DNA of 64,000 nt, from the sequence record NZ_CP118102.1; one strand, 5' to 3'. How positions within the stretch are numbered: the first letter of the stretch is position 1; each line of letters opens with the position of its first letter. The DNA comes from a plasmid. Positions 7,997-35,244 of this stretch are shown here, piece by piece. A program made the translations under genes and the position numbers. The notes under the pieces were generated by a model. That model saw only the letters and a list, made by a program, of their open reading frames with translations. It did not search any database and was not told the origin of the DNA.

Positions 7997-8068
7997 GTGG
8001 AGTTGGAGCCATTAGTTGAGTGTCGGGAACGATCCGACGTTGCCGTCCAATGGGTTTCGGGGAGCGAA

Positions 8069-12812: not shown

Positions 12813-13800
12813 AATATGCGTGATCGGATGCGGCGGCATCGCCTGGAGAGGGCATGGTCCGGCGTACCGGCGTTACCGGGAGGAACGGCCGGATACGGAG
12901 CTGGCTGCCTGCGTGGACGCCGATCCGGACAGGGCGGCCAAATTCGCCGAGGAGTTCGGCTTTCGCCGGGCGTACACGAGGGTGGAGGAAGCGCTGGAGA
13001 CGGAGCGTCCAGACGCCGTCTGCCTGCTCGTGCCCGCTCCGTACATCGCGGAGCTGGCCGCATCGATTCTAGGCCAAGGCTACCCGCTGCTGCTGGAGAA
13101 ACCTCCCGGCACGACGCGGGAAGAAGCGCTGCGCATCGCAGCAGCCGCGATTCGGCCGAACGGCGGCGAGATTCCGACACGGGTGGCGTTCAACCGCCGA
13201 TATATGCCGCTGATCGGGCAGGCGGTCGACGCGCTGAAGGAGTGGCGTGAAGCCGGACGGCTGCATCATATCGCTTACGACATCAGCCGGGTTGGCCGAA
13301 CCGACGACGAGGACGCGTCCGTCACCGCGATTCACGGCATCGACGCGCTAAGAACGCTGGCAGGTTCGGATTACCGCGACATTCGCCTGAGCTATCGCCC
13401 GCTCCCGCATCTGGGTTCGCGCGTGACGAATGTCTCGCTGGAAGGCGAGTTTCAGTCCGGGGCGACGTTCCGGCTGAATTATTTTCCGGCGGCGGGGGCG
13501 GTATACGAGAGGGCGGCGATCAACTGTGAAGACGCCACGCTGCTGCTTCGGCTTCCGTTCTGGACGTCGAACGATTCGCCCGGAGGCGTTCTGCTGCAAG
13601 GCAACCGCGAGCTGAAGCATTGGGCGTCGGAAGCCGAGCCGTTCGTAACCAACGGCTTCTACGAGGAGAATGCCGGCTTCTTCGACGCCGTCCGCGCGGG
13701 CATGCAGCCGACTGGAGGAATCCGCACGGCGATTCAGTCGGTAGAGGTGGCGGAGGCGGTGCTGCGGAGAGAGACGCGTTATGCGTCGGACAACAGATAA
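12802..13800 (+). CDS. Gfo/Idh/MocA family oxidoreductase
   Basis: N-terminal KICVIGCGGIAWRGHGPAY Rossmann motif. 332 aa. RBS GGAAAGGAG. Confidence 0.8.
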   Translation: MAFKICVIGCGGIAWRGHGPAYRRYREERPDTELAACVDADPDRAAKFAEEFGFRRAYTRVEEALETERPDAVCLLVPAPYIAELAASILGQGYPLLLEKPPGTTREEALRIAAAAIRPNGGEIPTRVAFNRRYMPLIGQAVDALKEWREAGRLHHIAYDISRVGRTDDEDASVTAIHGIDALRTLAGSDYRDIRLSYRPLPHLGSRVTNVSLEGEFQSGATFRLNYFPAAGAVYERAAINCEDATLLLRLPFWTSNDSPGGVLLQGNRELKHWASEAEPFVTNGFYEENAGFFDAVRAGMQPTGGIRTAIQSVEVAEAVLRRETRYASDNR

Positions 13801-13811
13801 GGAGGACAACG

Positions 13812-16043
13812 ATGAACAGCAAATCAGCGAGCTACGACGTCGTGGTCGCCGGAGGCGGACTGGCCGGCTTCAGCGCGGCGGTGGCAGCGGCCCGGGAAGG
13901 CGCGCGCACCGCGCTCGTGCAGGATCGACCCGTGCTGGGCGGCAACAGCTCGTCGGAAATTCGCGTGACGCCGCACGGCGCCGGACGGTTTCATGCCTAC
14001 GCCAGAGAGACGGGAATCATTACCGAGGTGACGTGCGAGGATCGGGCGAACAACCATGAGCAGTTTCACAACAACGGCTGGACGAACAGCGTGTGGGATA
14101 TGACGTTGTACGATCTGGCGATGAGAACGCCGAACTTGACGGTGTACCTGAACACCTCCGTGCAGCAGGTCGAAAAGGATGGAGACCGGCGCATCGCCGC
14201 CGTTACCGCGAGAGTCGCGGGGGCGGAGACGGAGCTGCGGCTGCAAGGCCGCGTCTTCATCGATTGCACCGGGGACGGCACGGTCGCGGCGCTGGCGGGC
14301 AACGAGTGGCGGATGGGCAGCGAGAGCCGCGACGAATTCGGCGAGCCCCACGCTCCGGAGCGCGCAAGCGGCGACACGATGGGCAGCTCGATCCATTTCC
14401 GCGCCCGCGATACGGGGCGGCCGGCTCCGTTTCGCGCCCCCGAATGGGCCGTCGCGTATGACGATCCCGCCTTTTTCTACGCGCACAATCGCAGACCGTA
14501 CGACATTCGCGCCGGTTACTGGTGGTTCGAGCTGGGTTCGCCTTGGGATACGATACACGACGCGGAGACGATCCGCCATGAGCTGACGCGCCATGTGCTG
14601 GGCGTATGGGACTGGATCAAGAACAAGGACCCGCTGACCCGGGACAAGGCGGTGAATTACGCGCTCGACTGGATCGGCCAGGTGCCGGGCAAAAGGGAAA
14701 GTCGGCGCATAATGGGCCGTTATCTGCTGACCGAGCATGACGTGCTGGAAGGCAGAAAGTTTGCCGACGAGGTCGCCTATGGCGGGTGGTATTTGGACCT
14801 GCACATCCCCGGAGGGCTGCTCGCGCCGACAAGCGAGCTGCCGGGAGCGGCCGAGCTGGTCAGCCCCTACGGCATTCCGCTGCGCATTCTGATCGCCAAG
14901 GATATCGACAACCTGCTGATGGCGGGGCGCAACGTCAGCGTCACGCACGCGGCGCTCGGCACCGTCCGCGTCATGTCGACGACTGCCATTATGGGCCAGG
15001 CGGCAGGAACCGCCGCTGCCGTCGCGCTTAGGCGCGGCATTCCCGTCCCGGACGTGCCGGGGACGGACGCCATTGCGGAGGTGCAGCAGACGCTGCTGCG
15101 GGCCGGCTGTTTCCTGCCGGGCGCAGCGAACGTCGATCCGCTCGACCTCGCCCGGCAGGCGGAGGTGACGGCCAGCAGCGAGGCGGAGCTTGCCGAGACG
15201 GAGCCGGGAGACGAGGGAGAGGCGCTGGACATCCGTCGCAGCCAGTGGGTGGCCGTCGCGGCGGGCGAACTGGAGCATCTGGACGTCTGGGTGGCGAATC
15301 GCGGCGACCATCCGCTCTCGTTCGAAGCCGAATTGCATCGCACCGGGCATATTTGGGATTACGACGTGCGGCAGCAAAACCGGCTGGCCGCAGCCATACT
15401 GGAAGTTCCGCCGGCCTGCGAAGGCTGGATTCGATGGCTGCCGCGGCTGGACGCGCGAAGCGGCCTTCCGGAAGAAGGCTATGTCCGGCTCGATCTGCTG
15501 AACGGCCGCGGGCTGATCTGGCGCCGCGCCAATGCCGTGCACCCCGGGCTTCCGTCGGCCAGCGAACTGGAGCCCGGCCGCCTGCGCAGCCACGACGACG
15601 GACGGACGATGAGCTTCCGCGTCAGTCCGCCCCAGCCGATCTATTCGGCCGCGCAGACGGTCAGCGGCGTCACCCGGCCGCATCGGACCGTCAACCTGTG
15701 GCGTTCGGCGCCAGGCCTGCCGCTTCCGCAGACGCTGGAGCTGCGATGGCGCGAGACGCGGGAGATCGGGACGGTCGAGCTGACTTTTCCGGGACATCTG
15801 CTTCAGGATCACAACCGTTATCCCGCCTACTATCGCGAACCCGACTGTCCGCGCGACTACAGAATTGAGGCTTGGACCGCCGGGGGCTGGGAGAGCGTCC
15901 ACGAGACGTTCGGCAATTATCAGCGCCGCGTGTCTCATCGACTCTCCCGACCGGTACGGACGGAGCGCATCCGCATCGTCTTCCTGGCATCCAACGGAGG
16001 CGCGGAAGCGGCGGTCTACGAGATTCGCTGCTACGGGATATAA
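13812..16043 (+). CDS. FAD-dependent oxidoreductase (FAD_oxidored family) with C-terminal beta-sandwich extension
   Basis: N-terminus YDVVVAGGGLAGFSAAVAAAREGARTALVQ...GGNSS is the FAD-binding dinucleotide motif. ATG at 13812 follows TAAGGAGGA. The track start at 13620 is an artefactual extension. Confidence 0.75.
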   Translation: MNSKSASYDVVVAGGGLAGFSAAVAAAREGARTALVQDRPVLGGNSSSEIRVTPHGAGRFHAYARETGIITEVTCEDRANNHEQFHNNGWTNSVWDMTLYDLAMRTPNLTVYLNTSVQQVEKDGDRRIAAVTARVAGAETELRLQGRVFIDCTGDGTVAALAGNEWRMGSESRDEFGEPHAPERASGDTMGSSIHFRARDTGRPAPFRAPEWAVAYDDPAFFYAHNRRPYDIRAGYWWFELGSPWDTIHDAETIRHELTRHVLGVWDWIKNKDPLTRDKAVNYALDWIGQVPGKRESRRIMGRYLLTEHDVLEGRKFADEVAYGGWYLDLHIPGGLLAPTSELPGAAELVSPYGIPLRILIAKDIDNLLMAGRNVSVTHAALGTVRVMSTTAIMGQAAGTAAAVALRRGIPVPDVPGTDAIAEVQQTLLRAGCFLPGAANVDPLDLARQAEVTASSEAELAETEPGDEGEALDIRRSQWVAVAAGELEHLDVWVANRGDHPLSFEAELHRTGHIWDYDVRQQNRLAAAILEVPPACEGWIRWLPRLDARSGLPEEGYVRLDLLNGRGLIWRRANAVHPGLPSASELEPGRLRSHDDGRTMSFRVSPPQPIYSAAQTVSGVTRPHRTVNLWRSAPGLPLPQTLELRWRETREIGTVELTFPGHLLQDHNRYPAYYREPDCPRDYRIEAWTAGGWESVHETFGNYQRRVSHRLSRPVRTERIRIVFLASNGGAEAAVYEIRCYGI

Positions 16044-16183
16044 CGGGATTGCCTTTTCATAACACAAGCTTGGCATTCTCCAATAACCTACTTTACACCT
16101 CGGAAAACACTGTATTATGATGAGGCCATGCGAGAGGCCGCGCACAACGCAAGTCGAATCCATATTCAAGGAGACAATGACCG

Positions 16184-16999
16184 ATGAACGCTAAAACAAA
16201 AACGTTATTCGCCGTATTGACGCTGGTTGCGGCACTGATCGCCGCAGGCTGCTCGAACGATAAAGGAAACGGCTCCGCACAGTCGGCCGCCGCGCAAACT
16301 TCGCTGGATAAGCTGAAGCAGAAAGGCGAGTTCGTCATCGCGACGACCGGCACGTATCCGCCGTACGCCTTCCACGAGGAGACCGGCGACCGACCGCTGA
16401 CCGGCTTCGATATCGAGCTGCTGACCGAGGTGTTCGCGCGCATCGACGGCGTGAAGCTGTCGTTCAAGGAAGCGGAATGGGACGGCATGCTTGCAGGCCT
16501 GGACGCGGGACGGTTCGACTCGATCCACCAGATCGGAGTCACGGAGGAGCGCAAGGAGAAATACGATTTCGCCGACCCGTACCTGATCTCGTACCCGACG
16601 CTGATCGTGCTGGACGAGACGAAGGATATCAACAGCTTCGAGGATTTGAAGGGCAAGAAAGTGTACGGCTCCAATACGAGCATTTACGGCAAGCTGGCCG
16701 AGTCCTACGGCGCGGTGCTCGTGCCGGAGGGCGAAAGCCTGGAGCTGCTGAAGAACAAACGGGTGGACGCGATCATTTTCAACAATCTGTACTTCCTGGA
16801 GCTGAAGAAAAACCGTCCCGACCTGAACCTGAGAGCGGCCGATCAGGCCGATACGCAGGAGTTGGTGGCGCTGCCTCTCGTGAAGGGCGGAGACGGTACG
16901 GCGATCGCGGCGTTTAACGAGGCGCTGAAGAGCGTGAAGGAAGACGGCATATACGAGAAGCTGTCGCTCAAATGGTTCGGCGAAAACTTGCTGAAGTAA
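16184..16999 (+). CDS. Amino-acid ABC transporter substrate-binding lipoprotein (SBP family 3)
   Basis: Lipoprotein signal MNAKTKTLFAVLTLVAALIAAGC. Polar amino acid SBP-like body. Confidence 0.8.
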   Translation: MNAKTKTLFAVLTLVAALIAAGCSNDKGNGSAQSAAAQTSLDKLKQKGEFVIATTGTYPPYAFHEETGDRPLTGFDIELLTEVFARIDGVKLSFKEAEWDGMLAGLDAGRFDSIHQIGVTEERKEKYDFADPYLISYPTLIVLDETKDINSFEDLKGKKVYGSNTSIYGKLAESYGAVLVPEGESLELLKNKRVDAIIFNNLYFLELKKNRPDLNLRAADQADTQELVALPLVKGGDGTAIAAFNEALKSVKEDGIYEKLSLKWFGENLLK

Positions 17000-17021
17000 G
17001 GCGGATAAAGGAGGGCTCGGC

Positions 17022-17699
17022 ATGAGCCAGGAGCGCGCGGAAAGACTGTGGGACATAGCCCTCCACTCGTTGTGGCCGCTGCTGCAGGGGATGCTGAAAT
17101 ACACGATTCCTCTGTCGCTCGTCTCGTTCGCGCTGGCGCTGATCTTCGCTCTGCTGATCGCGCTGGCCGGCCTGTCTCCCAGGCCGTACCTGCGGTTGCC
17201 CTCGCGGTTCTACGTCTGGATCGTCCGGGGCACGCCCATTCTCGTTCAACTGTTCATCATTTTCTATGGACTTCCGAATGTCGGCATCGTGCTTCCCGCG
17301 TTCCCGACGGTCGTCATCGCGCTGACGGTGGCGGAAGCGGCGTACTGCTCGGAAATCATGCGCTCGACGATCAAATCTCTGCCGCAGGGGCAGTGGAAGG
17401 CGGGATATTCCCTCGGAATGTCCCCTTTCCAGGTGCTCAGACGCGTCATCTTGCCGCAGGCGGCGCGGATCAGCATTCCGCCGCTCGGCAACCAGTTCAT
17501 CGGCCTGTTCAAGACGTCGTCGCTGGCCGCTCTCGTCACCCTGCCGGACCTGTTCGGCGTGGCCAAGCAGATCGCCGCCTCGACGTTCGAGCCAATGCTG
17601 CTCTATATTATCGCGGCCGGCTACTATTTGCTGATCTGCTCCGCGCTGACGGTCGGCCAGCACCGGCTGGAGAAGAAGTTCGGCAACTATTCGCTGTAG
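17022..17699 (+). CDS. Amino-acid ABC transporter permease (His/Glu/Gln/Arg/opine family)
   Basis: Multi-TM protein with the EAA-like region [34 protein letters not shown]. Confidence 0.8.
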
Positions 17700-17719
17700 C
17701 GGGAAAGGAGGGGATCGCC

Positions 17720-18514
17720 ATGTTGAACGTTACGCAGCTTCGCAAAAGCTTCGGCCGCACCGAGGTGCTTCGAGGCATCGACCTGCGCGTGGCCAAGGGG
17801 GAGACGACGATTGTGATCGGTCCTTCAGGTTCAGGCAAGTCGACGCTGCTGAGTTGCCTGAACCTGCTGGAAATTCCCGATTCCGGGGAGCTTGAGCTGG
17901 ACGGCCATCGGATGAAGTTCGGGGACGGCGGCAAAAAGCGGACTCGCGAGCTGATCGGCTATCGGCAGAAAACGGGCATGGTGTTCCAAAGCCATCAGTT
18001 GTTCCCGCACCGGACGGCGCTGGAGAACGTAATCGAAGGGCTGATCGTCGTCAAGCGCTGGAATCGCAGCGACGCGCGCCGACGGGGCGAGGAGCTGCTC
18101 GCCAAAGTCGGTCTGCGCGAATTCGCCGACCGCTACCCGGCACAGCTGTCCGGCGGGCAGCAGCAGCGGGTCGGCATCGCCCGGGCGCTTGCGATGGACC
18201 CGGCGGTGCTGCTGTTCGACGAGCCGACGTCAGCGCTCGATCCGGAGCTGGTCGGCGAAGTGCTGCGGGTGATGAAGGAACTGGCGCGCGAAGGGATGAC
18301 GCTGATCGTGGCGACGCATGAAATGAACTTCGCCCGGGAGGTGGCCGACCGCGTCATCTTCATGGAAAAGGGCTTGATCGCGGACGAAGGCACGGCGGCC
18401 CATATTTTCGGCGCGAGCCGTAACGAGCGGGTGCGTCAGTTTCTCAGCCGGTTCGACGCGGCGGCGGAATTGCCGTCCGTTCCGGTTCAGGTTCAGGTTC
18501 AGGCAACTTTATAA
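17720..18514 (+). CDS. Amino-acid ABC transporter ATP-binding protein
   Basis: Walker [10 protein letters not shown], signature LSGGQQQRV, Walker [12 protein letters not shown]. Start is the ATG at 17720 after AGGAGGGG. The track ORF 17048.. is a 5-prime extension overlapping the permease. Confidence 0.85.
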
Positions 18515-18538
18515 TAGAAGAAAGGCGGGTGGCAGCCG

Positions 18539-19891
18539 ATGACGGCAAACCGCAAACAATTGAAACTGGGCTTTATGGTGCACGGCGTCGGGTCGAGCGC
18601 GAGCGCATGGCGGCATCCGGCGGTCGAGTCGGACGCGAGCGTCGCGTTCGACTTTTACCGGCGGCAGGCGCAGATCGCGGAGGCCGGCAAGCTGGACCTC
18701 GTCTTTATCGCGGACGTGCTTTATATTAACGAGCGATCGACGCCGCATTTCGTCAACCATCTGGAGCCGCTGACGCTTCTGGCCGCGCTGGGCGCCGTTA
18801 CTTCGCGGATCGGCCTCGTCGGCACGCTGTCGACGACGTACAGCGAACCCTACGCCGGAGCGCGCCAGCTCGCTTCGATCGACCGGATCAGCGGAGGACG
18901 GGCGGGCTGGAACGTCGTGACGACCGGCATGCGCGGAGCGGCGCTCAACTTCGGCAAAGCGGAGGACGCGCACCCGGATCACGATACGCGCTACCGGATC
19001 GCGGGCGAATATTTGGAGGCGGCGCGCGGACTGTGGGATTCGTGGGAGGACGACGCGTTCGTAAGGGACAAGGAGAGCGGCGTCTTTTACGACCCGGACA
19101 AGCTGCATACGCTCGACTACCGGGGCGAGTTCTTCTCGGTTCGCGGTCCGCTGAACATCGCGCGCTCCAAGCAGGGGCATCCGGTCATCTTCCAGGCGGG
19201 CTCCTCGGAGGACGGTCAGAACTTCGCCGCCCGCCATGCCGACGCGGTCATGACCGGCATTACCGAGCCGGAGGAGGCGCGGCGTTATTATCGGGAGCTG
19301 AAGCGCAAAGCCGCTGCAGCGGGACGAAATCCGGACGATCTGCTCGTTATGCCGAGCGCCGCCGTCGTCGTAGGCCGAACGAGGGAAGAGGCGGAGGAGA
19401 AGTACGAGGCGACCGCTTCGCTCCTGTCGATCGAGGAGGCGATGCGGTATTTCGCGCAGTTTTTCGACTTTCACGATTTTACGCAGTATCCGCTCGACGG
19501 TCCGTTTCCCGAGCTGGGCGACTTGGGGCGCAGCAGCTATCAGAGCTTTACGGACAGGGTCAAGCGCGAGGCGCGGGACAAGGGGCTGACGCTGCGCCAG
19601 ACGATTCGCAGGTTCGCCGCGCCGAAGCCGCGTTTTCTCGGTTCGGCAGCCGAAGTGGCGGACGGCTTGCAGGAATGGTTCGAGACGGGGTCGGCCGACG
19701 GATTTATATTGCACAGCGACGTGCCGGGCACGTTGTCCGACTTCGCGGAGCTTGTCGTGCCGGTGCTGCAAGAGCGCGGTTTGTTCCGCCGCGAGTACGA
19801 GGCCGATACGCTGCGGGGCATGCTCGGCTTGCCCGTGCCGCGCAATCGCTATGAGGCCGCGCGGGCCGCACGCTTCAAGGACGGCGGGTGA
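18539..19891 (+). CDS. LLM-class flavin-dependent monooxygenase (NtaA/SnaA/DszA family)
   Basis: 450 aa. N-terminal KLGFMVHGVGSS...WRHP typical of the nitrilotriacetate monooxygenase / DszA family. Confidence 0.75.
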   Translation: MTANRKQLKLGFMVHGVGSSASAWRHPAVESDASVAFDFYRRQAQIAEAGKLDLVFIADVLYINERSTPHFVNHLEPLTLLAALGAVTSRIGLVGTLSTTYSEPYAGARQLASIDRISGGRAGWNVVTTGMRGAALNFGKAEDAHPDHDTRYRIAGEYLEAARGLWDSWEDDAFVRDKESGVFYDPDKLHTLDYRGEFFSVRGPLNIARSKQGHPVIFQAGSSEDGQNFAARHADAVMTGITEPEEARRYYRELKRKAAAAGRNPDDLLVMPSAAVVVGRTREEAEEKYEATASLLSIEEAMRYFAQFFDFHDFTQYPLDGPFPELGDLGRSSYQSFTDRVKREARDKGLTLRQTIRRFAAPKPRFLGSAAEVADGLQEWFETGSADGFILHSDVPGTLSDFAELVVPVLQERGLFRREYEADTLRGMLGLPVPRNRYEAARAARFKDGG

Positions 19892-21104
19892 ACAGCCAGA
19901 ACAGCAGGGCGGCGGCGCTGACAGCCGCGCCGAGCAGACAGACGCCGGTCCAGCCTGCGGCATGGTAGGTCATCGTGGAGGCGATCGAACCGGCCGCGCT
20001 GCCGAACGAGTAGAACATCATGTAGCCGGCGGTCAGCCTGCTCCGGGCTTCCGGCCGCACGGCCAAGATCAGGCTCTGGTTGGTCACATGCACCGCTTGC
20101 ACGGCCGCGTCGAGCAGGACGATGCCGGCGAGCAGCGCGAACAGCGAATGCGGAGTCATTCCGATCGGCAGCCAGGAGCCGAGCAGCAGAAGCAGCGCCG
20201 CTCCGGTCGTTCGCTGTCCGAGGCCGCGATCGGCCCATCTGCCGGCGCGCGCGGCCGCCATCGCTCCGGCGGCTCCCGCCAGTCCGAATGCGCCGATCGC
20301 CGTATGCGACAGCGAGAACGGCGGAGCGCTGAGAGGCAGCGCCAGCGAAGTCCACAAAATGCTGAATGCGGCGAAAATCAGCATGGCAAGGACGGCGCGA
20401 ACACGCAATATCCGCTCCTGCACGAACAGTGCAAGCATCGATCGAAGCAGTCCGAGGTAGGCGACGGATTCGCTCGCAGGCTCGCGAAGAGGCAGCGTCC
20501 GAAGCAGGGCGACGGCCATAACGGACGTCAGCGCCGCCGATGCGAAGTACACGGCCCGCCAGCCGCCCATATCGGCCAATAAGCCCGCGAACGACCGGGC
20601 GAGTAAAATGCCGATGCCGATGCCGCTTGTCACCAAGCCTACGATGCGTCCCCTCTCGGCAGGGGAAGCCAAAGCGGCCGCGTATGCGACCAGCGTCTGC
20701 GTCACGACGGCGAGTCCTCCGACCGCAGCCATGCCGACGAGCAGCGTCGCGCTCGAAGATGAGAAGCCGACCGCCAGCAGCGCGGCGACGGACAGCAGCA
20801 TCTGCGCCCCGATCAGCTTGCGGCGGTTGAGCAGATCGCCCAGCGGCACGAGCAGCAGCAGCCCGAGCGCATAGCAGATTTGCGTTACTGTAACGACGAT
20901 GCCGATCGTGGAGCGGGCGATGCCGAATTCTCCCGCGATCGAATCCAACAGCGGCTGAGCATAGTACACATTGGCGACTGCCAGCCCCGCGGCAGCGGCA
21001 AACAAATAGGCCGCACGCCGCGAAAGATAGGCCGGCTGCGCGGCTCCTGCTTCAAGATGACCGACTTCTGCCGTACTCCCCGAATGCGAAACGCTATTTT
21101 TCAT
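19875..21104 (-). CDS. MFS transporter
   Basis: 409 aa with 12 predicted hydrophobic segments. ATG at 21104 with AGGAGGAAUGGAGAU RBS. Confidence 0.75.
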   Translation of the reverse strand: MKNSVSHSGSTAEVGHLEAGAAQPAYLSRRAAYLFAAAAGLAVANVYYAQPLLDSIAGEFGIARSTIGIVVTVTQICYALGLLLLVPLGDLLNRRKLIGAQMLLSVAALLAVGFSSSSATLLVGMAAVGGLAVVTQTLVAYAAALASPAERGRIVGLVTSGIGIGILLARSFAGLLADMGGWRAVYFASAALTSVMAVALLRTLPLREPASESVAYLGLLRSMLALFVQERILRVRAVLAMLIFAAFSILWTSLALPLSAPPFSLSHTAIGAFGLAGAAGAMAAARAGRWADRGLGQRTTGAALLLLLGSWLPIGMTPHSLFALLAGIVLLDAAVQAVHVTNQSLILAVRPEARSRLTAGYMMFYSFGSAAGSIASTMTYHAAGWTGVCLLGAAVSAAALLFWLFTRRP

Positions 21105-21281
21105 ATCTCCATTCCTCCTGTTTCTTCTGCATTTCTATTCTGTACCGAACAGTAAATAATAGAGCGTCACAAATATAGCTTTAAAGAATCGAATCTGTCA
21201 ACTCCTGCGGTAATCCTTTGACAATCAACTTTCCAAGGCGTATATTTTAATATACCGTTCGATACGAAATGAGGGAGAAGT

Positions 21282-21920
21282 ATGGCGCGTACGAGGGAGT
21301 TCGACGAGGAGCAGGCGCTCGATGCGGCGATGCGGCTGTTTTGGGAGAAGGGGTTCGAGGGGACGTCTTTAAGCGATCTGACGGCTGGCATGGGCATACA
21401 GCGCCCGAGCCTGTACGCGGCTTTCGGCGACAAGAAGGAGCTGTTCGAAGCCGCGCTCCGCAAGTATACGGGCGACCATGCCGCATACGTCCGCGCCTCT
21501 CTGCAAAATCGCCCTTCTATTATAGAAGCTTTCCGCAGCCTGTTTCGGAGCACGACGGCAACGGTGGACGAAGAGGGGGCGAGCCGGGGATGCTTCTGCA
21601 TCAACTCGATGGTGGAGCTGGCGCCTCATGACGAGAAATTCGCGGTTTTGACCAGGGAGCATCAGATGTATATCGCCGTTCTCTTCCAGGAAGCAATCGA
21701 GCGTGGGATTCGTTCCGGCGAGCTGGCCCCCGGCATTCATGCCAAAGGTTTGGCCCAAGCGCTGGCCGTCTCGTGGATCGGACTGACGGTGCTGGCGAAG
21801 TCCCGTCCGCCCCGGTCGTTTCTCGATCAGTCGGTGGAGGAAACGGTCGCGCTGCTGCGGCGGGGCGAATCGGATCGTCCATCATTCGGAAATTGTGACG
21901 GGGCCGACATAAATTTATGA
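21282..21920 (+). CDS. TetR/AcrR family transcriptional regulator
   Basis: N-terminal HTH ALDAAMRLFWEKGFEGTSLSDLTAGMGIQRPSLYAAFGDKKELF. Confidence 0.85.
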   Translation: MARTREFDEEQALDAAMRLFWEKGFEGTSLSDLTAGMGIQRPSLYAAFGDKKELFEAALRKYTGDHAAYVRASLQNRPSIIEAFRSLFRSTTATVDEEGASRGCFCINSMVELAPHDEKFAVLTREHQMYIAVLFQEAIERGIRSGELAPGIHAKGLAQALAVSWIGLTVLAKSRPPRSFLDQSVEETVALLRRGESDRPSFGNCDGADINL

Positions 21921-22010
21921 CAAAATGATGGTGTCTCCGCGAAAGCCGCGAATGATCGCGCAAGTTATGTTAGCATAGGGGGAGGATAATCTGGAAGGAG
22001 CGGATAAGCC

Positions 22011-22430
22011 GTGCAGCGAGTTCAAAACAGTCGTCTGAGTCTTGAAATGCCCACCAAATCGTTTATCCATGTCTTATTCGATACGATAAAGATCGGAATT
22101 ATCAAATCCAACTTGATCGCGATGTTCGCCGGCCTGTGCATGGCTCTGTACGTAGAAGGAATCCCGTTCTTCGACAAGATCGGCACGATCGTCCTGGCCG
22201 GGATCGGATCTTTCCTCGTCATCGGTTCGGCGGGCGCGTTCAACAATTTGTACGACCGGGACATCGACGCCATTATGGACAGAACGAAGAAGCGGCCGAC
22301 CGTGACCGGATACGTCGGCACGAGGAGCGGCCTGTTCATCGCCATCTGGACCGCCGTATTCGGCCTGTTCGCCTTGTACGTTGCGTCTCCGTTGGCGGCG
22401 CTGTTCGGCTTTCTCGGCCTGTTCCTGTAG
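22011..22430 (+). pseudogene. ctaB: Protoheme IX farnesyltransferase (heme O synthase, UbiA family), truncated after about 139 codons
   Basis: IKIGIIKSNLIAMFAGLCMAL and the first Asp-rich motif NNLYDRDIDAIMDRTKKRP match CtaB/CyoE. The ORF stops at 22430 with only about 4 TM helices, and the second Asp-rich motif and C-terminal half are missing. The GC content drops immediately downstream. Confidence 0.7.
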
Positions 22431-22465
22431 GGGTACCGCCAACATTTTAACGATAATATACGCTA

Positions 22466-22502
22466 AGCCTTCGGATGTACCTGGCTTAGCGTTTTTTCTT
22501 AC
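22466..22502 (+). terminator. Rho-independent terminator-like hairpin just downstream of truncated ctaB
   Basis: ACGCTAAGCC-ttcggatgtacct-GGCTTAGCGTTTTTT. Confidence 0.55.
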
Positions 22503-22614
22503 TCTAAGCCCAATAGTCCGGGCTACACCGCCCGGACTACCGATCACTCACCTTCCTGTTGTTTCAGCGGTCGTAATGAGTTAGCGGACATCAAGTGTAT
22601 GCTTTGAAAACACC

Positions 22615-22646
22615 AAATGACCGCTAATCTTAATTAGCGGTCATTT
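22615..22646. other. Perfect palindrome (14-bp stem, 4-nt loop) at the GC-content junction
   Basis: AAATGACCGCTAAT-CTTA-ATTAGCGGTCATTT. A related half-site TTAGCGGACA lies at about 22581-22592. Confidence 0.6.
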
Positions 22647-22784
22647 AATATTAGGAGATCATTCCTTCATGATGGTTCGTAGAGACGATTTGCGCAACCG
22701 AGGAAACACTCGTGCAGCAAATGAATCGGCAACGAATCGCGCTATAGGAATCGTTTCTGCGCGATACTTCACGAAGCATATTTT

Positions 22785-23129
22785 TTATTTTAATATCAAT
22801 TCGATGATGTTGCTTGTTTTGCCACCGGATGACGAACTTTTTTGACGCATTGTCATCCTCCCTGCACCTGCCATTTCCACGAGAATTTGCCCGATGGCGT
22901 TTGTGGTATCAATCACCATGTTTTTGATTGCTTTAGGTTCCAGCGTCACCCCGTTGTCGATGGCTGTGCCATCGATCACACTTGGCAATACATTGCCGTT
23001 TGCACTGTCTTTGACGACCATGTTAATATTTTTTTCTTCGTCGCTGCCATTGTTGATCGCCACCGAAAGTGTGGTTTCTCCGTTTTTGCGAGACATCGTG
23101 AACGTGGTTTTTGAACTGTTTTCAAGCAT
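22785..23129 (-). CDS. Hypothetical small Asn/Ser/Thr-rich protein
   Basis: ATG at 23129 preceded by AAGGAGG at ideal spacing. 114 aa. Apparently co-transcribed with the upstream minus-strand gene. Confidence 0.6.
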   Translation of the reverse strand: MLENSSKTTFTMSRKNGETTLSVAINNGSDEEKNINMVVKDSANGNVLPSVIDGTAIDNGVTLEPKAIKNMVIDTTNAIGQILVEMAGAGRMTMRQKSSSSGGKTSNIIELILK

Positions 23130-23143
23130 GGGTAAACGCCTCC

Positions 23144-23512
23144 TTAAGCGATTGAATTATTTTGGTTTAACATATCAAAAATGCGCTGTTGTTTATTTTT
23201 TTCATCATCGAGCAGTTTGGAAATAATCCCTTCCAAATTCGTCGTCCCCGACGTGCCGCAGGTACAGCCGCTTGTTGATCCGCTAGAAGGCTGACAGTTA
23301 CAGCAGGTACGGCATTTGCAAAACAAAAGCAATAAGGCTAAAAGCACGGAATTGTCGCTAATTTGAATTTGATTGCCAACGGTGAAGTTGTTGCCATTGG
23401 AGACGGTGTTTGCCGAGTTGTTTGCCGAGCTCGCTAACCCGTTTGCCGTGCTCACTAAGGCGCTGTTGTAGTCAAAGGTGTTGTTGGATTCACTGGTATT
23501 CGTGGATTCCAC
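23144..23512 (-). CDS. Hypothetical small protein with N/S/T-rich N-terminus, hydrophobic stretch and Cys-rich segment
   Basis: 122-aa ORF-track entry with a GTG start. Contains VLLALLLLF followed by CKCRTCCNCQPSSGSTSGCTCGTSG. No clear RBS. Its Cys-rich segment is probably real on this strand, because the overlapping plus-strand ORF N-terminus is the antisense image. Confidence 0.4.
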   Translation of the reverse strand: MESTNTSESNNTFDYNSALVSTANGLASSANNSANTVSNGNNFTVGNQIQISDNSVLLALLLLFCKCRTCCNCQPSSGSTSGCTCGTSGTTNLEGIISKLLDDEKNKQQRIFDMLNQNNSIA

Positions 23513-24051
23513 AACACATCGAAGAGCATATAAACCACCATGGAGAGGAAGAGAACACTTTTAAACTCCCATTACCGGAACTCATTCAATTTGCAGAACT
23601 CCTTGGCAAAGAAGAAAGTGACCGGTACGTAGCCAATTTCAATAGGATGTTGAATCGTAGTTGCGATTATCTAGATTTCAGTATGGAAGGGATAGTTGTA
23701 AACGCTAGTATTCAAATTACCTTGACTGGCTTCTATGGTATTTTATCTCCCTTTCTTAAAGTGTTGTTAGAAATTAAACAAATGGTGCAGCAAGTTTTTC
23801 GTGATAGCAAGTCACAGATAACTAACAGCTCTCAGAATGTAGTTTTACTGAAGGAGCTTAATCAAAGGGTTGGATCCGTTCCTGAAGTATCCATCACTGA
23901 CAGCACAACTGTTGTGTTTGCCCAGATCATGAAGTTCCTCGGTGGGAACTCATCTGAGAGCAGTGATAACTTAACCTTCAGTGATATGAGAAACATTTTA
24001 ACCCATGTACTTGACCAGGTGACTATAAATAGGAAGGATGATGTGGCATGA
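23410..24051 (+). CDS. Hypothetical protein (true start probably internal, near 23650-23690)
   Basis: ORF-track TTG start. The first 35 or so codons are the antisense image of the minus-strand Cys-rich gene. The C-terminal two thirds is open and ends 4 nt before the next gene. No recognisable motif. Confidence 0.4.
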   Translation: MPSCLPSSLTRLPCSLRRCCSQRCCWIHWYSWIPQHIEEHINHHGEEENTFKLPLPELIQFAELLGKEESDRYVANFNRMLNRSCDYLDFSMEGIVVNASIQITLTGFYGILSPFLKVLLEIKQMVQQVFRDSKSQITNSSQNVVLLKELNQRVGSVPEVSITDSTTVVFAQIMKFLGGNSSESSDNLTFSDMRNILTHVLDQVTINRKDDVA

Positions 24052-24761
24052 GCCAGCAGCATTTAGTAGAGAAAAACAATACAGGAAATGAAATGGTTAT
24101 TCGGATCCGCGACCATTATGCACTTCCCATTGTTGAGGAGTATATTGACGGTGTTAAAGTCGGTGAAGGTATTTATACACATGAAGCGGTTGCCAGTGCT
24201 ATTCTTCAGTCTCTAGAAACTGGATTAGTACGAACACCTGTCATGCCAAGAGGTGCTCTCCATTTCGTTGAAATAACGAAGTCCCGTCAGTTTATCTTTA
24301 TGGAGGTGTCTCCTCAAAACAGGAAGGCTTATTATCACGAAGCCGTAATTGAGGAAGTTCCTTTTCCAAGATTGGTATTCGGCTTTGAAATTCATGAGCG
24401 TGATAAAAATTGGGCAATCAGTCAAGTATACCTTGCAGCTTTGGAGGACCAAATCATTCCCAGTGAGGAATCGATGGTCTTTTTTTATCCCTACACCAAC
24501 GTTAAGGAGAATTTTCAAGTTTGCTGGGGTAGTCAGCAGTTACCGGATATTGAACGGTTATCGCAGCTATCCACTTTTCCAGAACTGTTCTTTAACTCTC
24601 CAAATTCGGACTGTTACTACTATAGTTCTAATAACAGCGACATGAATTATCGCGAGCTGGTGACCAAGATTAAGGGAGAAAGATTTCCGCAAGAGTATCT
24701 TAAGGCGACTAATCTTACACTGCAGGCATGGTTCAATCGGATCGTTGGTTTTGAAGTGTAG
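24048..24761 (+). CDS. Hypothetical protein, candidate divergent E2/UBC-like fold
   Basis: 237 aa. Alternating beta-strand-like segments are followed by FFYPYTNVKENFQVCWGS, reminiscent of the E2 HPN flap plus catalytic Cys. Its position next to the JAB and E1-like genes supports this. The inference is weak. Confidence 0.35.
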   Translation: MSQQHLVEKNNTGNEMVIRIRDHYALPIVEEYIDGVKVGEGIYTHEAVASAILQSLETGLVRTPVMPRGALHFVEITKSRQFIFMEVSPQNRKAYYHEAVIEEVPFPRLVFGFEIHERDKNWAISQVYLAALEDQIIPSEESMVFFYPYTNVKENFQVCWGSQQLPDIERLSQLSTFPELFFNSPNSDCYYYSSNNSDMNYRELVTKIKGERFPQEYLKATNLTLQAWFNRIVGFEV

Positions 24762-24798
24762 AACGAGATAAATATTAGTTAAATTAGGAGGAATAAAA

Positions 24799-26199
24799 AT
24801 GTCTAACAACAATTATGGTCAAGGTGATCTATTCTCTTATTTTGGTGATGATTTCGCTGAAGCATTAGAATATGAGGAGAAGAATAAACTACAGCATACT
24901 TCTGACCAATCTATTGAAGAAGATCATAAAGATAACCCTCCATCAGAGAGTCTTACTTCTGATCCAGCAGCTGAAAAAAGTCAAGGTGAAAGCCGTCCGA
25001 CGAAGCTAATCTCACTGGAATCGCGCAGAAGAGTATCAGATTCTTTCTCTAATGATGGTTGTCCTGATGCATGTTCTGATAAAGAATTAGATGACGATGA
25101 AAAAGATGCTTTAGAGGATAAGGCAAGCGATGAACAAGAAGCGGACAAGCGTGAGCTCAGTGGGGAAAGCGGAAACACTTCTGTGATCAAATCAGATGAA
25201 AAAACACCAGTTACCGCTAAGAAGGAAATAGAAAAACCAGAACTGAATCATGCTACCTTTATTTGCTACTCAGGGCTAAGCATTTCTATAACAAAATTCT
25301 TCTCTGAGGATAAGCTAGCTGGTCTTGAGCTTGAGGATGTTCGGAAACGCCTGGAAAAAGATTACCCAGAGCTTTCAAAACAGCGGACAAAAATGGATTG
25401 GGACAAGAAGAAAAATATAATTGTGCCTATGGTCACCGGTGGAAAAAAAGGGGCCCGTTTTACAAATGGCACTCGTGGTTTTTATTCATCTTCTCAAGAA
25501 CTCATTGAGCATCAGGAGCCAATATCCTACCTTGCTGCACAAGATGGGTACTATGAAATACGAGAGAACCTGATAGGAGTATTTATAGGGAGAACGGCTG
25601 CTGAAGAGCTGATTGAATGGGAAGGATTCTCTGTATTTAATTCAGTCTTACCCAAACATCTAGATCGTGAGCCTTGCAGACCTGGATTTAAATACAAATT
25701 ACCTAAGATACCCAAGCAACTCTTTGCTCAACTGGTCTCCTTTTTTATGGACTATACAGATTACGATGTGGAGGTTATGGGTGTTTTCTACTACGATATT
25801 GATCGCCAGCAGTTTATTTTGGATGTTCCTTATCAATCTGTCACCAAATATTCAGTTAACCCTTGGTACTCTGTTTATCCCGGACATGTAGTTAAGGTCG
25901 CTGAAATCCATTCACATAACACGATGCGTGCAGATTTTAGTTCGATTGATGATGAAGATGAAGTAGGGACCATGTTATACGGAGTAGTTGGTAAGATCAA
26001 AAAAGGACATGCAACAGACGTGTTTTTTGATGTCAGGACTCGTGCAGGAATGGCAGGAAAGTTCATACCTATCGATCCCAAGGTATTTATCGAAGGAGAA
26101 TTAACGAGTAACCGGCTAAATAATCATATCGATTATGTCGCCTATCCTAAAGACTGGGTTAAAAAGGTGACAATCATAGGAGGCAATAGAAATGATTAA
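24799..26199 (+). CDS. JAB/MPN (JAMM) metalloprotease-domain protein with acidic N-terminal region and an internal ubiquitin-like segment ending in GG
   Basis: AGGAGGAA RBS. C-terminal JAMM motif E...HSHNTMRADFSSID, that is HxHx7Sx2D. Residues around 140-205, ATFICYSGLSISI...LELEDVRKRLEKDYPEL...NIIVPMVTGG, resemble a beta-grasp ending in Gly-Gly. Confidence 0.7.
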   Translation: MSNNNYGQGDLFSYFGDDFAEALEYEEKNKLQHTSDQSIEEDHKDNPPSESLTSDPAAEKSQGESRPTKLISLESRRRVSDSFSNDGCPDACSDKELDDDEKDALEDKASDEQEADKRELSGESGNTSVIKSDEKTPVTAKKEIEKPELNHATFICYSGLSISITKFFSEDKLAGLELEDVRKRLEKDYPELSKQRTKMDWDKKKNIIVPMVTGGKKGARFTNGTRGFYSSSQELIEHQEPISYLAAQDGYYEIRENLIGVFIGRTAAEELIEWEGFSVFNSVLPKHLDREPCRPGFKYKLPKIPKQLFAQLVSFFMDYTDYDVEVMGVFYYDIDRQQFILDVPYQSVTKYSVNPWYSVYPGHVVKVAEIHSHNTMRADFSSIDDEDEVGTMLYGVVGKIKKGHATDVFFDVRTRAGMAGKFIPIDPKVFIEGELTSNRLNNHIDYVAYPKDWVKKVTIIGGNRND

Positions 26200-27025
26200 T
26201 CTACTTTCACTCACTCCAAACTACACATCACTTTATTATTATATAGTCTTGATTGGTGCAGGAGGGAATGGTGGATATACGGTGCAACGTCTAACTAAGA
26301 TGATGAGTGCATTTAATAATGTTCCATCCTTTCTTATGATTGCTGATCCGGATACTGTAGAGGAAAAGAACATTCTGCGGCAGCCTTTTATCCCGTCTGA
26401 TATTGGGCTCAAGAAATCCGAGGTATTAGCTAAGCGATATGGCGGTACATATGGATTAAAGATCGGTTCTTTCTCAGATTCATATATTGAGTCGGTAGAA
26501 CAAATAGAAAAACTTTTTTCTCTGACGGATTACCGGCATAAGCCTGGACAATACATTCAAAAGGTACTTATAGGTGCTGTAGATAATGATTTTTCAAGAA
26601 ACATCATGAATGATTACTTCAATCGGACGGATGATATCATTTATATTGATGCCGGCATCGAAGGGGTTTTCATGCCAAGTGAGCAGCCACAAGATCAGTG
26701 GTCTACCGAGGAACTAAAGGACCACATGGATAGTGGCTATTCCGGTCAGATTGTTGTAGGACTAAAAAAAGACGGGAAGGAGATCTTACCGCCTCTAAAT
26801 GTGGTTTACCCTATAAATGCGGAAGATGCTATCCCTCCGTCTCACAACTGTGGGTTAGAGCCTTATCAACCACAACGGATGATCGCCAATGAATATGCTG
26901 CCATGCATATATCTACAGTTCTTAATGAGCTTTTTAGCTCAAATTCGATTCATATTCATATATCGAACTTCTCAGCAAGGAATGGTAGCTGCCGTCCTAT
27001 TTATTTTGAAGAGGTACAGGAATAG
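26192..27025 (+). CDS. E1-like ThiF/MoeB/HesA family adenylyltransferase
   Basis: Rossmann VLIGAGGNGGYTV, then the ThiF/MoeB signature ADPDTVEEKNILRQ (D.D.V..SNL.RQ). Overlaps the JAB gene by 8 nt. Confidence 0.8.
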   Translation: MINLLSLTPNYTSLYYYIVLIGAGGNGGYTVQRLTKMMSAFNNVPSFLMIADPDTVEEKNILRQPFIPSDIGLKKSEVLAKRYGGTYGLKIGSFSDSYIESVEQIEKLFSLTDYRHKPGQYIQKVLIGAVDNDFSRNIMNDYFNRTDDIIYIDAGIEGVFMPSEQPQDQWSTEELKDHMDSGYSGQIVVGLKKDGKEILPPLNVVYPINAEDAIPPSHNCGLEPYQPQRMIANEYAAMHISTVLNELFSSNSIHIHISNFSARNGSCRPIYFEEVQE

Positions 27026-27032
27026 CCGCCCA

Positions 27033-27070
27033 ATTGTCACATTTAAAAAGGGGGCATAATAATTACCCCC
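27033..27070 (+). terminator. Strong rho-independent terminator after the E1-like gene
   Basis: AAAAAGGGGGCATAATAATTACCCCCTTTTTT. Confidence 0.8.
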
Positions 27071-27095
27071 TTTTTTCTACAATGAAACACTAGGC

Positions 27096-27125
27096 AATTG
27101 ACGAATTTTGTCTTTTTTGCTATAA
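27096..27125 (+). promoter_or_regulatory. Sigma-A-like promoter candidate (TTGACG, 17 nt spacer, TATAAC) driving a roughly 270-nt leader upstream of the PP-loop gene
   Basis: The sequence reads TTGACGaattttgtcttttttgcTATAAC. The downstream leader contains small hairpins: agacaccggaggtgtct and ccgataatcgg. Confidence 0.4.
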
Positions 27126-27395
27126 CTAAAGTATTACATGAGTTATAAATTTTTCTTTATCGTTGACTATTCGATAAAGAGAGAGTTAAACCGATAATCG
27201 GCTAATAAATATTTTGGGCTTAATTTGCCATGGAGAACATAGACACCGGAGGTGTCTATTTGTGTTTCTATGGCTTTTTTTGTGCCTTACGGGAGGTCAT
27301 ACATAATTAACGAGTACAGAGATCCTTATCAAGTTAGTGATGAATTGTTGATCCCTGCAGAAGACTAGGTTGAAACGCTATGTGCCGAGCAATTT

Positions 27396-28193
27396 GTGCT
27401 TCCCACACTTCCACCAGAGATGTACGCTGTGGACCAGTATGACCACTATCATATTAACTTTTCAGGGGGTGCCGACTCACTTGCGCTCGCCTTGATTATG
27501 AAATATGGATACAAAATACCATCCGAAAAGATGGTTCTTGTCCATATGCGAGTTGATGGAAATCCGGAAGAGAAGCAGCAACTCTTTGATTGGCCGCAGA
27601 CCGATGAATACTTGCGATACGCAAGTGAAAAGCTGGATATTCCATTGGTCGTTATTTGGGGTGACAAGTCACTTGAAGAACGTATTCGAGATCGCAAAAT
27701 GTTTCCGGATAAAAGCTGCAGATTCTGCACTTCTTATACGAAGCGAGACGTTTACGCAAAGTGGGTTCGTCAGTTCGATGACTGTAAAATTCTAATGCTT
27801 ACTGGGGAACGCTCAGAAGAATCATCTGATCGAGCGAAGGAGCCAATATTTGAGTATCATCCTGCCCATGCAACTAAAAGAAAGAATCGTGAAGTGCATT
27901 GGTTCCGACCGATCAAGAATATGCTTAAATCCCAGGTTAAGCAGCTGGCCGCCAATTACAGTATTGAACTACACCCTTGTTATCAATGGGTTTCACGTTG
28001 CAGCTGTCGTTTCTGTATCTTTAATACCGCTTCGGAAATGGAGCGTGTCGCTCAGCTCTACCCTGATGATTGGGAGTACTTAAAACGTATGGAGTTACAT
28101 CTTGGCCATACCATGAAAACCAAAAGGGGTAAACCAGTCCTTCTTTCTGAATTTGTGAATGAATCTCAAGTCACCATATCAGACTTCATCTGA
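27396..28193 (+). CDS. PAPS reductase-like PP-loop ATP pyrophosphatase family protein (DndC/CysH-like superfamily)
   Basis: PP-loop INFSGGADSLAL (SGGxDS). C-terminal Cys cluster CYQWVSRCSCRFC. Start is uncertain: GTG at 27396 or ATG at 27420, neither with a strong RBS. Confidence 0.7.
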   Translation: MLPTLPPEMYAVDQYDHYHINFSGGADSLALALIMKYGYKIPSEKMVLVHMRVDGNPEEKQQLFDWPQTDEYLRYASEKLDIPLVVIWGDKSLEERIRDRKMFPDKSCRFCTSYTKRDVYAKWVRQFDDCKILMLTGERSEESSDRAKEPIFEYHPAHATKRKNREVHWFRPIKNMLKSQVKQLAANYSIELHPCYQWVSRCSCRFCIFNTASEMERVAQLYPDDWEYLKRMELHLGHTMKTKRGKPVLLSEFVNESQVTISDFI

Positions 28194-33150: not shown

Positions 33151-33229
33151 GTCACACCTCCAGATTAAACTTAACACAATATACAGTATATGTAAATTAC
33201 ATCGAAAGACGATTTTTGTCGAGGGACAA

Positions 33230-35241: not shown

Positions 35242-35244
35242 TCG

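Follow-up and report, generated by a model that had tools for sequence, protein, structure and literature searches.

What joins two blocks of DNA of very different base composition inside a single gene, and which of the two is the resident? The question is raised by a stretch of 64,000 nucleotides from the plasmid sequence record NZ_CP118102.1 (the window throughout), in which ctaB, the gene for heme O synthase, breaks off at about 22.43 kb and GC-rich DNA on the left gives way to AT-rich DNA on the right. A first-pass annotation made from the sequence alone offered two candidates: insertion of a very foreign integrative element into ctaB, or a chimeric assembly. The follow-up considered here points, with high probability, to another history, in which a Tn4430-like transposon of the Tn3 family cut ctaB in Cohnella, and a piece of about 40 kb of Cohnella DNA then moved as a transposon-closed circle into Paenibacillus urinalis, where it abuts plasmid-type DNA. 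No literature on this island or on P. urinalis genomics was found.

The change in composition is as abrupt as had been described. Guanine-plus-cytosine (GC) content per kb is 0.55-0.68 over positions 1-22,000 and 0.32-0.50 over 23,000-64,000, with block-wide values of 0.628 (left) and 0.383 (right); the drop falls at 22.43 kb, in a transition zone of about 22.4-22.6 kb. The GC content at third codon positions (GC3) of likely genes is 0.70-0.87 on the left, which bears out the bias reported for the upstream genes, and mostly 0.21-0.45 on the right, and the tetranucleotide signatures of the two blocks correlate only at r = 0.37. The left side had been called uniformly GC-rich, which holds at the scale of a kilobase but not for intergenic DNA at 21.0-21.3 kb, where GC dips to 0.40-0.46. 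In the right block the gene for a group II intron reverse transcriptase/maturase (41104-42429) forms a local peak of about 0.50 at 41-43 kb.

The truncated gene, ctaB', occupies positions 22011-22430 on the plus strand and holds 139 codons from the 5' end of a heme O synthase gene of Cohnella; all 139 residues are identical to those of an intact Cohnella CtaB. It carries the first Asp-rich motif of a UbiA-type prenyltransferase, NNLYDRDIDAIMDRT, and matches the heme o synthase model TIGR01473 at model positions 4-117 of 281 with 93.2 bits, below the cut-off of 210.3. The gene is a 5' fragment that falls short of a full-length heme o synthase, ending near codon 139 after the first Asp-rich motif as the first-pass annotation had read it. 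In Cohnella sp. CIP 111063 ctaB is intact, encodes a 307-amino-acid protein and is followed by ahpC and ahpF. DNA homology between the two ends at ...CCTGTA|, after which Cohnella continues CGTCGTTCC and the window continues GGGGTACC.

This break, 22429|22430, is the outer tip of a transposon terminal inverted repeat, IR-R, of 38 bp (GGGGTACCGCCAACATTTTAACGATAATATACGCTAAG; 22430-22467, plus strand), the first base of which completes the TAG stop codon of ctaB'. The repeat is of the Tn4430-like, Tn3-family type and is present in a single copy in the window, where none is expected by chance. Its sequence (GGGG...ACGCTAAG) is identical to the tnpA-proximal end of the transposon in 10 of 10 copies examined, as well as in the copies on the Cedars and Brevibacillus plasmids described below. 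The last five bases common to the window and intact Cohnella ctaB, CTGTA (22425-22429), are the presumed 5-bp target site of the transposon, intact copies of which have target duplications of that length; a second CTGTA copy at ctaB is only presumed, because the other end of the original insertion was not found.

The intact element measures 6,832 bp and consists, in order, of the left inverted repeat (IR-L), two open reading frames (ORFs) of 556 and 114 codons (ORF556 and ORF114), tnpI (305 amino acids), tnpA (989 amino acids) and IR-R, and its two repeats pair at 32 of 38 positions. Six copies (L107, L110, L112, L115, L007 and L008) are flanked by 5-bp target duplications: TTATA (twice), TTCAA, AGATA, TACTT and TACCT. 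The TnpA of intact copies scores 1015.6 bits against the Tn3-family transposase model NF033527 (cut-off 500) and aligns over its full length with the solved transposase of Tn4430 (PDB 7qd4 and 7qd8; 1330 bits), and TnpI, encoded directly upstream of tnpA, is a 305-amino-acid protein of the Phage_integrase family. The transposon is widespread in Paenibacillaceae, and one intact copy lies on a contig of 6,194,872 bp. Among species-representative genomes none carries the ctaB joint, and the best intact relative there is in a metagenome-assembled genome of Bacillota, at 89%.

What the window retains of this element is a non-autonomous remnant of 1,080 bp (22430-23509, minus strand), in which element positions 1-153 are joined to 4080-5008 by deletion of 3,926 bp that includes tnpA and tnpI. 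The remnant is 100% identical to the corresponding parts of the copy on plasmid NZ_CP020865 of Paenibacillus sp. Cedars (L007 6001-6153 and 10080-11008). Of a DDE transposase of about 1,000 residues there remain the last 12 codons and the stop of tnpA (22544-22582, minus strand; transferred from the annotated tnpA at L007 6115-9084), next to the internal deletion joint at 22581/22582. A second inverted repeat was not found anywhere in the window at up to three mismatches, nor were long inverted or direct repeats that bracket the low-GC block within it. The window copy is a one-ended remnant, with one perfect IR-R, of a genuine Tn3-family member.

The terminator and two perfect palindromes that had been placed at the joint are accounted for by the same remnant. 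A hairpin with a T-run (22455-22497) and perfect palindromes at 22514-22539 and 22615-22646 are indeed there; all three fall within the remnant and recur unchanged in intact copies elsewhere: they are transposon features and not products of the joint. A simple terminator was considered and rejected: a consensus terminator scan calls none, and the hairpin has a loop of 13 nt and is part of the transposon end. The palindrome at 22615-22646 has two perfect arms of 14 bases (AAATGACCGCTAAT/ATTAGCGGTCATTT) and lies upstream of the tnpI position, where a TnpI site would be expected; its position and the layout described for the Tn4430 subgroup make it the putative core of irs, the resolution site for TnpI. 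Motifs related to it are found at 22564-22574 and 22581-22591. The deletion joint at 22581/22582 sits between two copies of this putative TnpI-site motif, which hints that the recombinase itself may have made the internal deletion.

Another deleted copy, on a plasmid of Brevibacillus borstelensis (L008, NZ_CP144923.1 8001-12024), likewise lacks tnpA and tnpI and retains positions 1-402; IS30 has inserted into it, and its two inverted repeats are still present together with a TTATA duplication. A deletion breakpoint common to this copy and the window was rejected; the two deletions are independent (1-402 versus 1-153).

If the element that abuts ctaB is a transposon, which block is foreign? The GC-rich block of the window (1-22429) is recognized by identity, gene order, tetranucleotides and Pfam content as the in-window part of a Cohnella island of about 40 kb. 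Cohnella sp. CIP 111063 (GCA_002237815.1), located by exact-protein look-up of one gene of the high-GC side, has the same gene order on its 283-kb contig MWSG01000011.1, to which the window is 99.50% identical over 10471-22429 and 98.4% over 8636-10490. Cohnella DNA that is not shared with the window correlates with the high-GC block in tetranucleotide usage at r = 0.91.

The same high-GC DNA is present in two complete chromosomes, CP118108.1 (5.44 Mb), from the same assembly as the P. urinalis plasmid CP118110, and CP118106.1 (5.47 Mb), which encodes a protein that NCBI names P. urinalis. Native P. urinalis DNA has a GC content of 0.43 near that species' own ctaB, which encodes a CtaB of 309 amino acids (P0101), and left of the island one of 0.476 overall, with 0.44-0.53 in 500-bp intervals. 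Over 10491-16173 the window differs from P. urinalis CP118108 at 0/5683 bases and from Cohnella at 16/5683 (99.7% identity), which places the window in the P. urinalis lineage and marks its GC-rich DNA as foreign. The host lineage is low-GC P. urinalis and the high-GC block is the immigrant; within the 64 kb the GC-rich side resembled the host and the AT-rich side the invader, and the true polarity is the opposite.

These results bear on the proposal that a large low-GC integrative element or plasmid, of at least 41 kb, entered a high-GC host chromosome at ctaB. From within the window the proposal looks natural, since a high-GC gene is interrupted and low-GC, mobile-looking DNA, with a tyrosine recombinase, insertion sequence (IS) elements and resistance genes, runs from there to the window end. 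It is right in that the break is the insertion point of a mobile element, but what was inserted is a transposon of 6.8 kb, and the low-GC block begins 1,080 bp farther on, at a separate blunt joint. The high-GC DNA, moreover, is a bounded island of about 40 kb in P. urinalis chromosomes with a native GC content of 0.43-0.48, matching the P. urinalis copies perfectly and Cohnella at 99.7% over the same stretch. Neither a second inverted repeat, a second junction nor the 3' part of ctaB is present in the window, as an integrative element in ctaB would call for. The proposal is refuted for practical purposes, and with it the view of the low-GC block as the newcomer. Nor was the transfer between families: it ran from Cohnella to P. 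urinalis, genera within Paenibacillaceae. Its supposed recency does survive, and for both sides, at 99.5% identity to Cohnella on the left and 99.98-100% to a plasmid on the right.

The 3' remainder of ctaB had been expected beyond the far end of the low-GC block. A 16-mer search of the window and of all fetched loci finds it in Cohnella-type loci only and in none of the P. urinalis loci fetched; neither it nor the second element end is to be expected beyond the low-GC block, the donor gene simply being intact. Scans of JGI metagenomes for the reciprocal joint (tip of IR-L, CTGTA and ctaB, predicted to read GGATGGACCCC+CTGTA+CGTCGTTCC) and for the ctaB'|IR-R joint returned no matches, which is uninformative because the genomes concerned are those of isolates.

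How the Cohnella DNA was integrated into the P. urinalis chromosome can be read at the edges of the island, which lie on P. urinalis chromosomal loci outside the window. About 13.6 kb more of high-GC DNA extends to the left of the window, and there the N-terminal 153 codons of a glutathionylspermidine-synthase-family gene run into the C-terminal part of a solute-binding protein (SBP) gene (GSP_synth-N|SBP-C; ...GCACGGGAGCT|GAGGAAGG...). The right edge is a 416-amino-acid SBP-N::GSP_synth-C fusion (...CACCGGTGGCT|CGAGAGTCAT...). The uninterrupted synthase-family gene is predicted to be ...GCACGGGAGCT|CGAGAGTCAT..., reading ...GCACGGGAGCTCGAGAGTCAT.... On the chromosome the transposon remnant measures 2,903 bp, keeps both inverted repeats, is flanked by the unlike pentamers CTTTA and TCCTT, and is followed by an SBP gene (SBP445), two permease genes and the SBP-N::GSP_synth-C fusion.

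The SBP gene that the two edges divide between them is intact in Cohnella sp. CIP 111063 (P0241, matching 99% of the query at 98% identity), where it shares a contig with ctaB and adjoins the SBP449 orthologue. The Cohnella order BPD-BPD-SBP-SBP449-Lsa, BPD being a permease gene, is contiguous through the crossover point; against this contiguous locus the P. urinalis flanks are 99.62% and 99.24% identical, their alignments meeting to within one base. The run behind the Cohnella contig that crosses this point is tied to CIP 111063, because L128 is 100% identical to L124. The crossover took place at a 3-bp microhomology (GCT) with loss of about 4 bp, which marks it as illegitimate rather than site-specific recombination.

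The two edges are the reciprocal products of a single crossover of a circle with the chromosome, and the integrated unit is a circularly permuted stretch of Cohnella DNA, contiguous over about 40.1 kb, whose two ends are met by IR-L and IR-R of one and the same transposon copy. Both features of an integrated circle, reciprocal junctions and contiguous donor DNA, are thus found at the P. urinalis loci. Those isolates carrying the island that have a recorded source come from blood.

Could the joints be assembly artefacts? The suspicion that high- and low-GC contigs of different organisms or replicons were falsely joined draws on the abrupt change in composition, on the almost perfect match of the two sides to different sources, and on the lack, among the contigs available, of any above 20 kb that carries the 23509|23510 joint. 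It does not withstand the recurrence of the joints. At least 10 contigs carry the exact CtaB' product together with the transposon end; they come from two assemblies at NCBI and from several Sequence Read Archive (SRA) runs assembled independently with a separate pipeline. The exact 213-amino-acid product of an ORF (23410-24051) that spans 23509|23510, and so represents the window form, is present in two runs, SRR23080378 and SRR23401455. The ctaB break also coincides to the base with a transposon terminus, as biology predicts. A chimera has a negligible probability.

Three structural forms in all share the ctaB'|IR joint or a derivative of it. In the chromosomal form, represented by CP118108 and an 804-kb European Nucleotide Archive (ENA) contig, the tip of IR-R is joined at 16173..16174 and 16174-22429 is deleted. 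Among contigs longer than 1 Mb none encodes the exact product of a gene from 16174-22429, and the comparisons suggest that CP118106 also lacks this segment. A second variant breakpoint, at 17081..17082, occurs in GCA_047229085.1, in GCA_047229155.1 and on a contig in 12 samples; there a deletion of about 22 kb fuses a Peptidase_M28 gene, which lies to the left of the window, to an ABC permease gene, and the transposon remnant runs 264 bp further before other low-GC DNA begins. The window and chromosomal forms have the same internal tnpA-tnpI deletion. A deletion that ends exactly at the tip of the inverted repeat is the expected product of transposase action, and a helper copy of the transposon may have supplied TnpA for it.

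The right-hand limit of the remnant is of a different nature. At 23509..23510 the interior of the transposon is joined to the interior of a 243-codon plasmid gene, which is truncated in the window; a three-way sequence comparison shows neither an inverted repeat nor microhomology at this point, and the joint is a secondary illegitimate join, not a transposition junction. From here to the end of the window (23510-64000) the DNA is 99.98-100% identical, in the same gene order, to NZ_CP118110.1, a metal-resistance plasmid of 190 kb from P. urinalis 2022CK-00829, the resident plasmids of this type ranging from 190 to 206 kb. Positions 107940-110726 of the plasmid show 0/2787 mismatches to the window; 123844-161550 show 1/3710, then one mismatch and two gaps in 33,555. 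The comparison with plasmids that the first-pass annotation had recommended identifies the block, by near-identity and gene order, as P. urinalis plasmid DNA of the 'unnamed2' type.

With plasmid DNA next to the remnant, a cointegrate has to be weighed as the source of the whole arrangement: a P. urinalis-type plasmid with the transposon would have fused into Cohnella ctaB, aberrant excision would have left a plasmid with Cohnella DNA, as in the window, and the chromosomal copies would derive from it. Tn3-family elements transpose through cointegrates (PMC7157771), the window links ctaB', transposon end and plasmid backbone in that order, and a plasmid would be the missing vehicle between the genera. 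In a related Paenibacillus plasmid backbone (L112) an intact transposon copy even lies about 5 kb from homologous genes, but it is oppositely oriented relative to the backbone genes. The plasmid joint, moreover, is not at IR-L: it is blunt and lies inside both a transposon ORF and a plasmid gene, so that extra deletions are needed. On the chromosome IR-L abuts the other end of the same Cohnella segment and not plasmid DNA, the island edges are those of an integrated circle with a single transposon copy, and both forms share the internal tnpA-tnpI deletion. The high-GC DNA, finally, is absent from a plasmid collection that holds other plasmids of these strains. The cointegrate route is accordingly an unlikely one.

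That collection contains two plasmids of sister strains, and the high-GC half of the window finds in it only weak matches to ABC-transporter genes; the island is on no catalogued plasmid. Its absence mildly favours a chromosomal location of the window.

The history preferred here, a Cohnella circle closed by the transposon and integrated into P. urinalis, does not go unopposed. IR-L followed by CTGTA and the 3' half of ctaB was not found in the window, the fetched loci or the JGI metagenomes. The remnant has no transposase, so that the chromosomal deletion next to its inverted repeat needs TnpA in trans or another cause. The 1.7 kb from IR-L to the first demonstrated Cohnella segment, which hold the SBP445 gene, lie beyond the end of the donor contig compared. 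The island has no transfer genes, which leaves the intergenus route unexplained. Finally, the absence of the high-GC part from the plasmid collection and the want of a contig above 20 kb with the 23509|23510 joint also count on this side.

Under the preferred history the events would probably have run in the following order. A Tn3-family transposon of the Tn4430 subgroup, encoding a DDE transposase (TnpA) and a tyrosine resolvase (TnpI), inserted into ctaB of a Cohnella strain close to CIP 111063. Some 40 contiguous kb of Cohnella DNA, stretching from codon 139 of ctaB to a locus for an ABC sugar transporter, would then have been released as a circle of about 43 kb closed by one transposon copy, either by deletion-type intramolecular replicative transposition or by recombination between two transposon copies in direct repeat, of both of which such a circle is equally the expected product. 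The circle would have entered low-GC P. urinalis by some vehicle and integrated into the chromosomal glutathionylspermidine-synthase-family gene by illegitimate recombination at the 3-bp microhomology. In the lineage of the window the remnant is cut at 23509 and joined bluntly to DNA essentially identical to the resident 190-206-kb metal-resistance plasmid. The window thus consists of two recently acquired blocks, the Cohnella island and plasmid-type DNA, that abut via a dead transposon end.

The genes of the island are for the most part ordinary chromosomal ones. Within the window they comprise a KAS III cluster, an amidase, an AraC regulator, sugar-phosphate isomerase-type enzymes and a flavin adenine dinucleotide (FAD) oxidoreductase, together with an amino-acid ABC transporter, a luciferase-like monooxygenase, an MFS transporter and a TetR regulator (Pfam). 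To the left of the window lie genes for a short-chain dehydrogenase, an OYE-type reductase, an acetyltransferase, the Peptidase_M28 protein, a P450-BM3-like protein, a TetR regulator and an Lsa-family ABC-F protein, and two genes for solute-binding proteins. The Lsa-family ABC-F gene (492 amino acids) is about 10 kb to the left of window position 1 (L125 1601-3079; L118 from 21018), with the P450-BM3-like gene (1,062 amino acids) near it; the closest named relatives of its product are in Cohnella, at 89-90% identity. The gene is of the ribosomal-protection type, and the Lsa family is associated with resistance to lincosamides and streptogramin A.

Two small differences between copies of the island were also observed. 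A tandem array of 51-bp units occupies 7390-8008 (nine registers, 61-90% identity to the reference copy) inside a 234-codon ORF with no Pfam match; over this interval CP118108 and the ENA contig align in overlapping, offset pieces and CP118106 aligns in one piece, an alignment pattern that suggests a difference in unit copy number between strains. At 10471-10490 the window and the SRR23080378 contig are short of about 99 bp that Cohnella and the chromosomal copies in P. urinalis retain. This deletion lies between 20-bp repeats and splits a 354-codon alpha/beta-hydrolase gene into ORFs of 214 and 121 codons.

In the transposon remnant two further ORFs can be followed on the minus strand. The 114-codon passenger ORF (22785-23129), which adjoins the tnpI and tnpA genes in intact copies, has no Pfam or NCBIfam match, and its exact protein occurs in 170 blocks of the assembly collection. 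The second, at 23144-23509, consists of the C-terminal 122 codons of the repetitive 556-codon passenger ORF, cut at 23509 as comparison with the intact element shows.

The low-GC block carries a Prok-E2/ThiF/PAPS-reductase module, HicB, an XRE regulator, a tyrosine recombinase, IS200, a group II intron and IS30, along with genes for copper, cadmium/zinc and other metal resistance. The annotation of the matching plasmid lists CopC/CopD, P-type ATPases with ArsR/SmtB regulators, a CDF transporter, an FAD oxidoreductase and BdbC/BdbD-like and CtaG-like proteins. The earlier calls of bdbDC, ctaG, cadCA and czcDO agree with this, but the Bacillaceae type ascribed to them does not: the source family is Paenibacillaceae, with matching Paenibacillus plasmids. 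A second copy of the group II intron maturase gene lies elsewhere on CP118110, 99.1% identical over 1.6 kb.

At 26292-26296 the window has an empty target site, TAACT, of a different Tn3-family transposon of 13.1 kb, as comparison with CP118110 and CP118105 (strain 2022CK-00833) shows; in these two plasmids the transposon splits the ThiF gene, with duplication of TAACT. It occupies NZ_CP118110.1 110727-123843 and carries hxlA, hxlB, zwf, gnd and pgi, which are ribulose-monophosphate and pentose-phosphate genes, together with a serine resolvase gene and tnpA. The independently assembled contigs SRR23080378_92 and SRR23401455_622 both end at 26278, 13 nt before the TAACT site, a coincidence that implies a branch in the assembly graph; a second copy of the region would be a speculative reading of it, on which no conclusion here rests.

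The region 24048-28193 resembles a prokaryotic ubiquitin-like conjugation module, with a Prok-E2_D protein (237 amino acids), a 466-amino-acid protein with no Pfam match, a ThiF/E1-like protein (277 amino acids) and a PAPS-reductase-domain protein (265 amino acids); HicB-like, XRE and tyrosine recombinase genes lie downstream of it. Families of short repeats of 26-112 nt, 82-93% identical and in direct and inverted orientation, are found in the low-GC block at 33224-33335, 35231-35380, 39578-39647, 40261-40332, 42946-42999, 44004-44110 and 50955-51102. They have motifs such as CCCGTTAGCTTAA and ATCGGTACAAGTTCTTGTCC in common, some of them flank an IS200-type tnpA (34618-35091), and they may be small non-autonomous elements.

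The locus holds a caution for genome scanning, in that host and invader were misread from GC content and what decided the matter was a transposon terminus of 38 bp lying exactly at the break. It also records that some 40 kb of ordinary chromosomal genes passed very recently from Cohnella to Paenibacillus urinalis. One boundary of the transferred DNA is marked by a Tn3-family transposon and the other by an illegitimate circle integration, and the dead transposon end keeps seeding deletions and joins to plasmid-type DNA. The island also brings the Lsa-family ABC-F gene, outside the window, into P. urinalis, where a role in resistance is putative. There is about an even chance that the broadest formulation is correct, namely that a Tn4430-like transposon excised about 40 kb of Cohnella chromosome, with the Lsa-family ABC-F and P450-BM3-like genes, as a transposon-closed circle, and that this circle passed into clinical P. 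urinalis, where its DNA is still undergoing reshuffling between the chromosome and DNA of plasmid type via the dead end, with at least three structural intermediates in sequenced isolates. If true, the case would document in nature, with unusual completeness, how a Tn3-family element mobilized bulk chromosomal DNA, and not its own passengers, between genera.

Among known systems the element stands closest to Tn4430 of Bacillus thuringiensis, Tn5401 and TnBth4, with which it shares 38-bp inverted repeats of the GGGG...TAAG type, 5-bp target duplications, a transposase of about 990 residues, and, directly upstream of the transposase gene, a gene for a tyrosine recombinase that is itself preceded by a palindromic site. 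In the Tn4430 subgroup tnpI and tnpA are colinear, with irs, the site of recombination, upstream of tnpI (PMC7157771). Tn4430 itself has no known passenger genes (PMC7157771), unlike the 6.8-kb Paenibacillaceae element, which has two passenger ORFs of 556 and 114 codons. The window copy differs from all intact Tn4430-type elements in being reduced to 1,080 bp with one inverted repeat and neither tnpA nor tnpI. The low-GC block, in turn, is like the 'unnamed2' plasmids NZ_CP118110.1 and NZ_CP118105.1, with the identity to CP118110 and the gene order given above; unlike them it lacks the 13.1-kb hxl transposon, so that the TAACT site is empty, and has the 243-codon gene truncated.

Replicative transposons make adjacent deletions and excised circles and mobilize chromosomal DNA, as gamma-delta (Tn1000) does with F. 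The deletion of 16174-22429 resembles transposon-adjacent deletions in having one endpoint exactly at the tip of the inverted repeat, and the island resembles the product of deletion-type intramolecular transposition in being a contiguous donor segment, both ends of which abut the outer ends of a single transposon copy. Unlike the case of gamma-delta and F, the events here are reconstructed from natural genomes of two genera and not from experiment. The edges of the island are like those of a Campbell-type circle integration, with reciprocal halves of two genes, both reconstructable and one verified as intact in the donor; unlike Campbell-type islands, there is no integrase-specified attachment site, and in its place are a microhomology of 3 bp and about 4 lost bp. 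The mechanisms, namely transposition of the Tn3-family type, deletion next to a transposon and illegitimate circle integration, are all of known kinds, and the case is a well-documented new example of them, not a new phenomenon.

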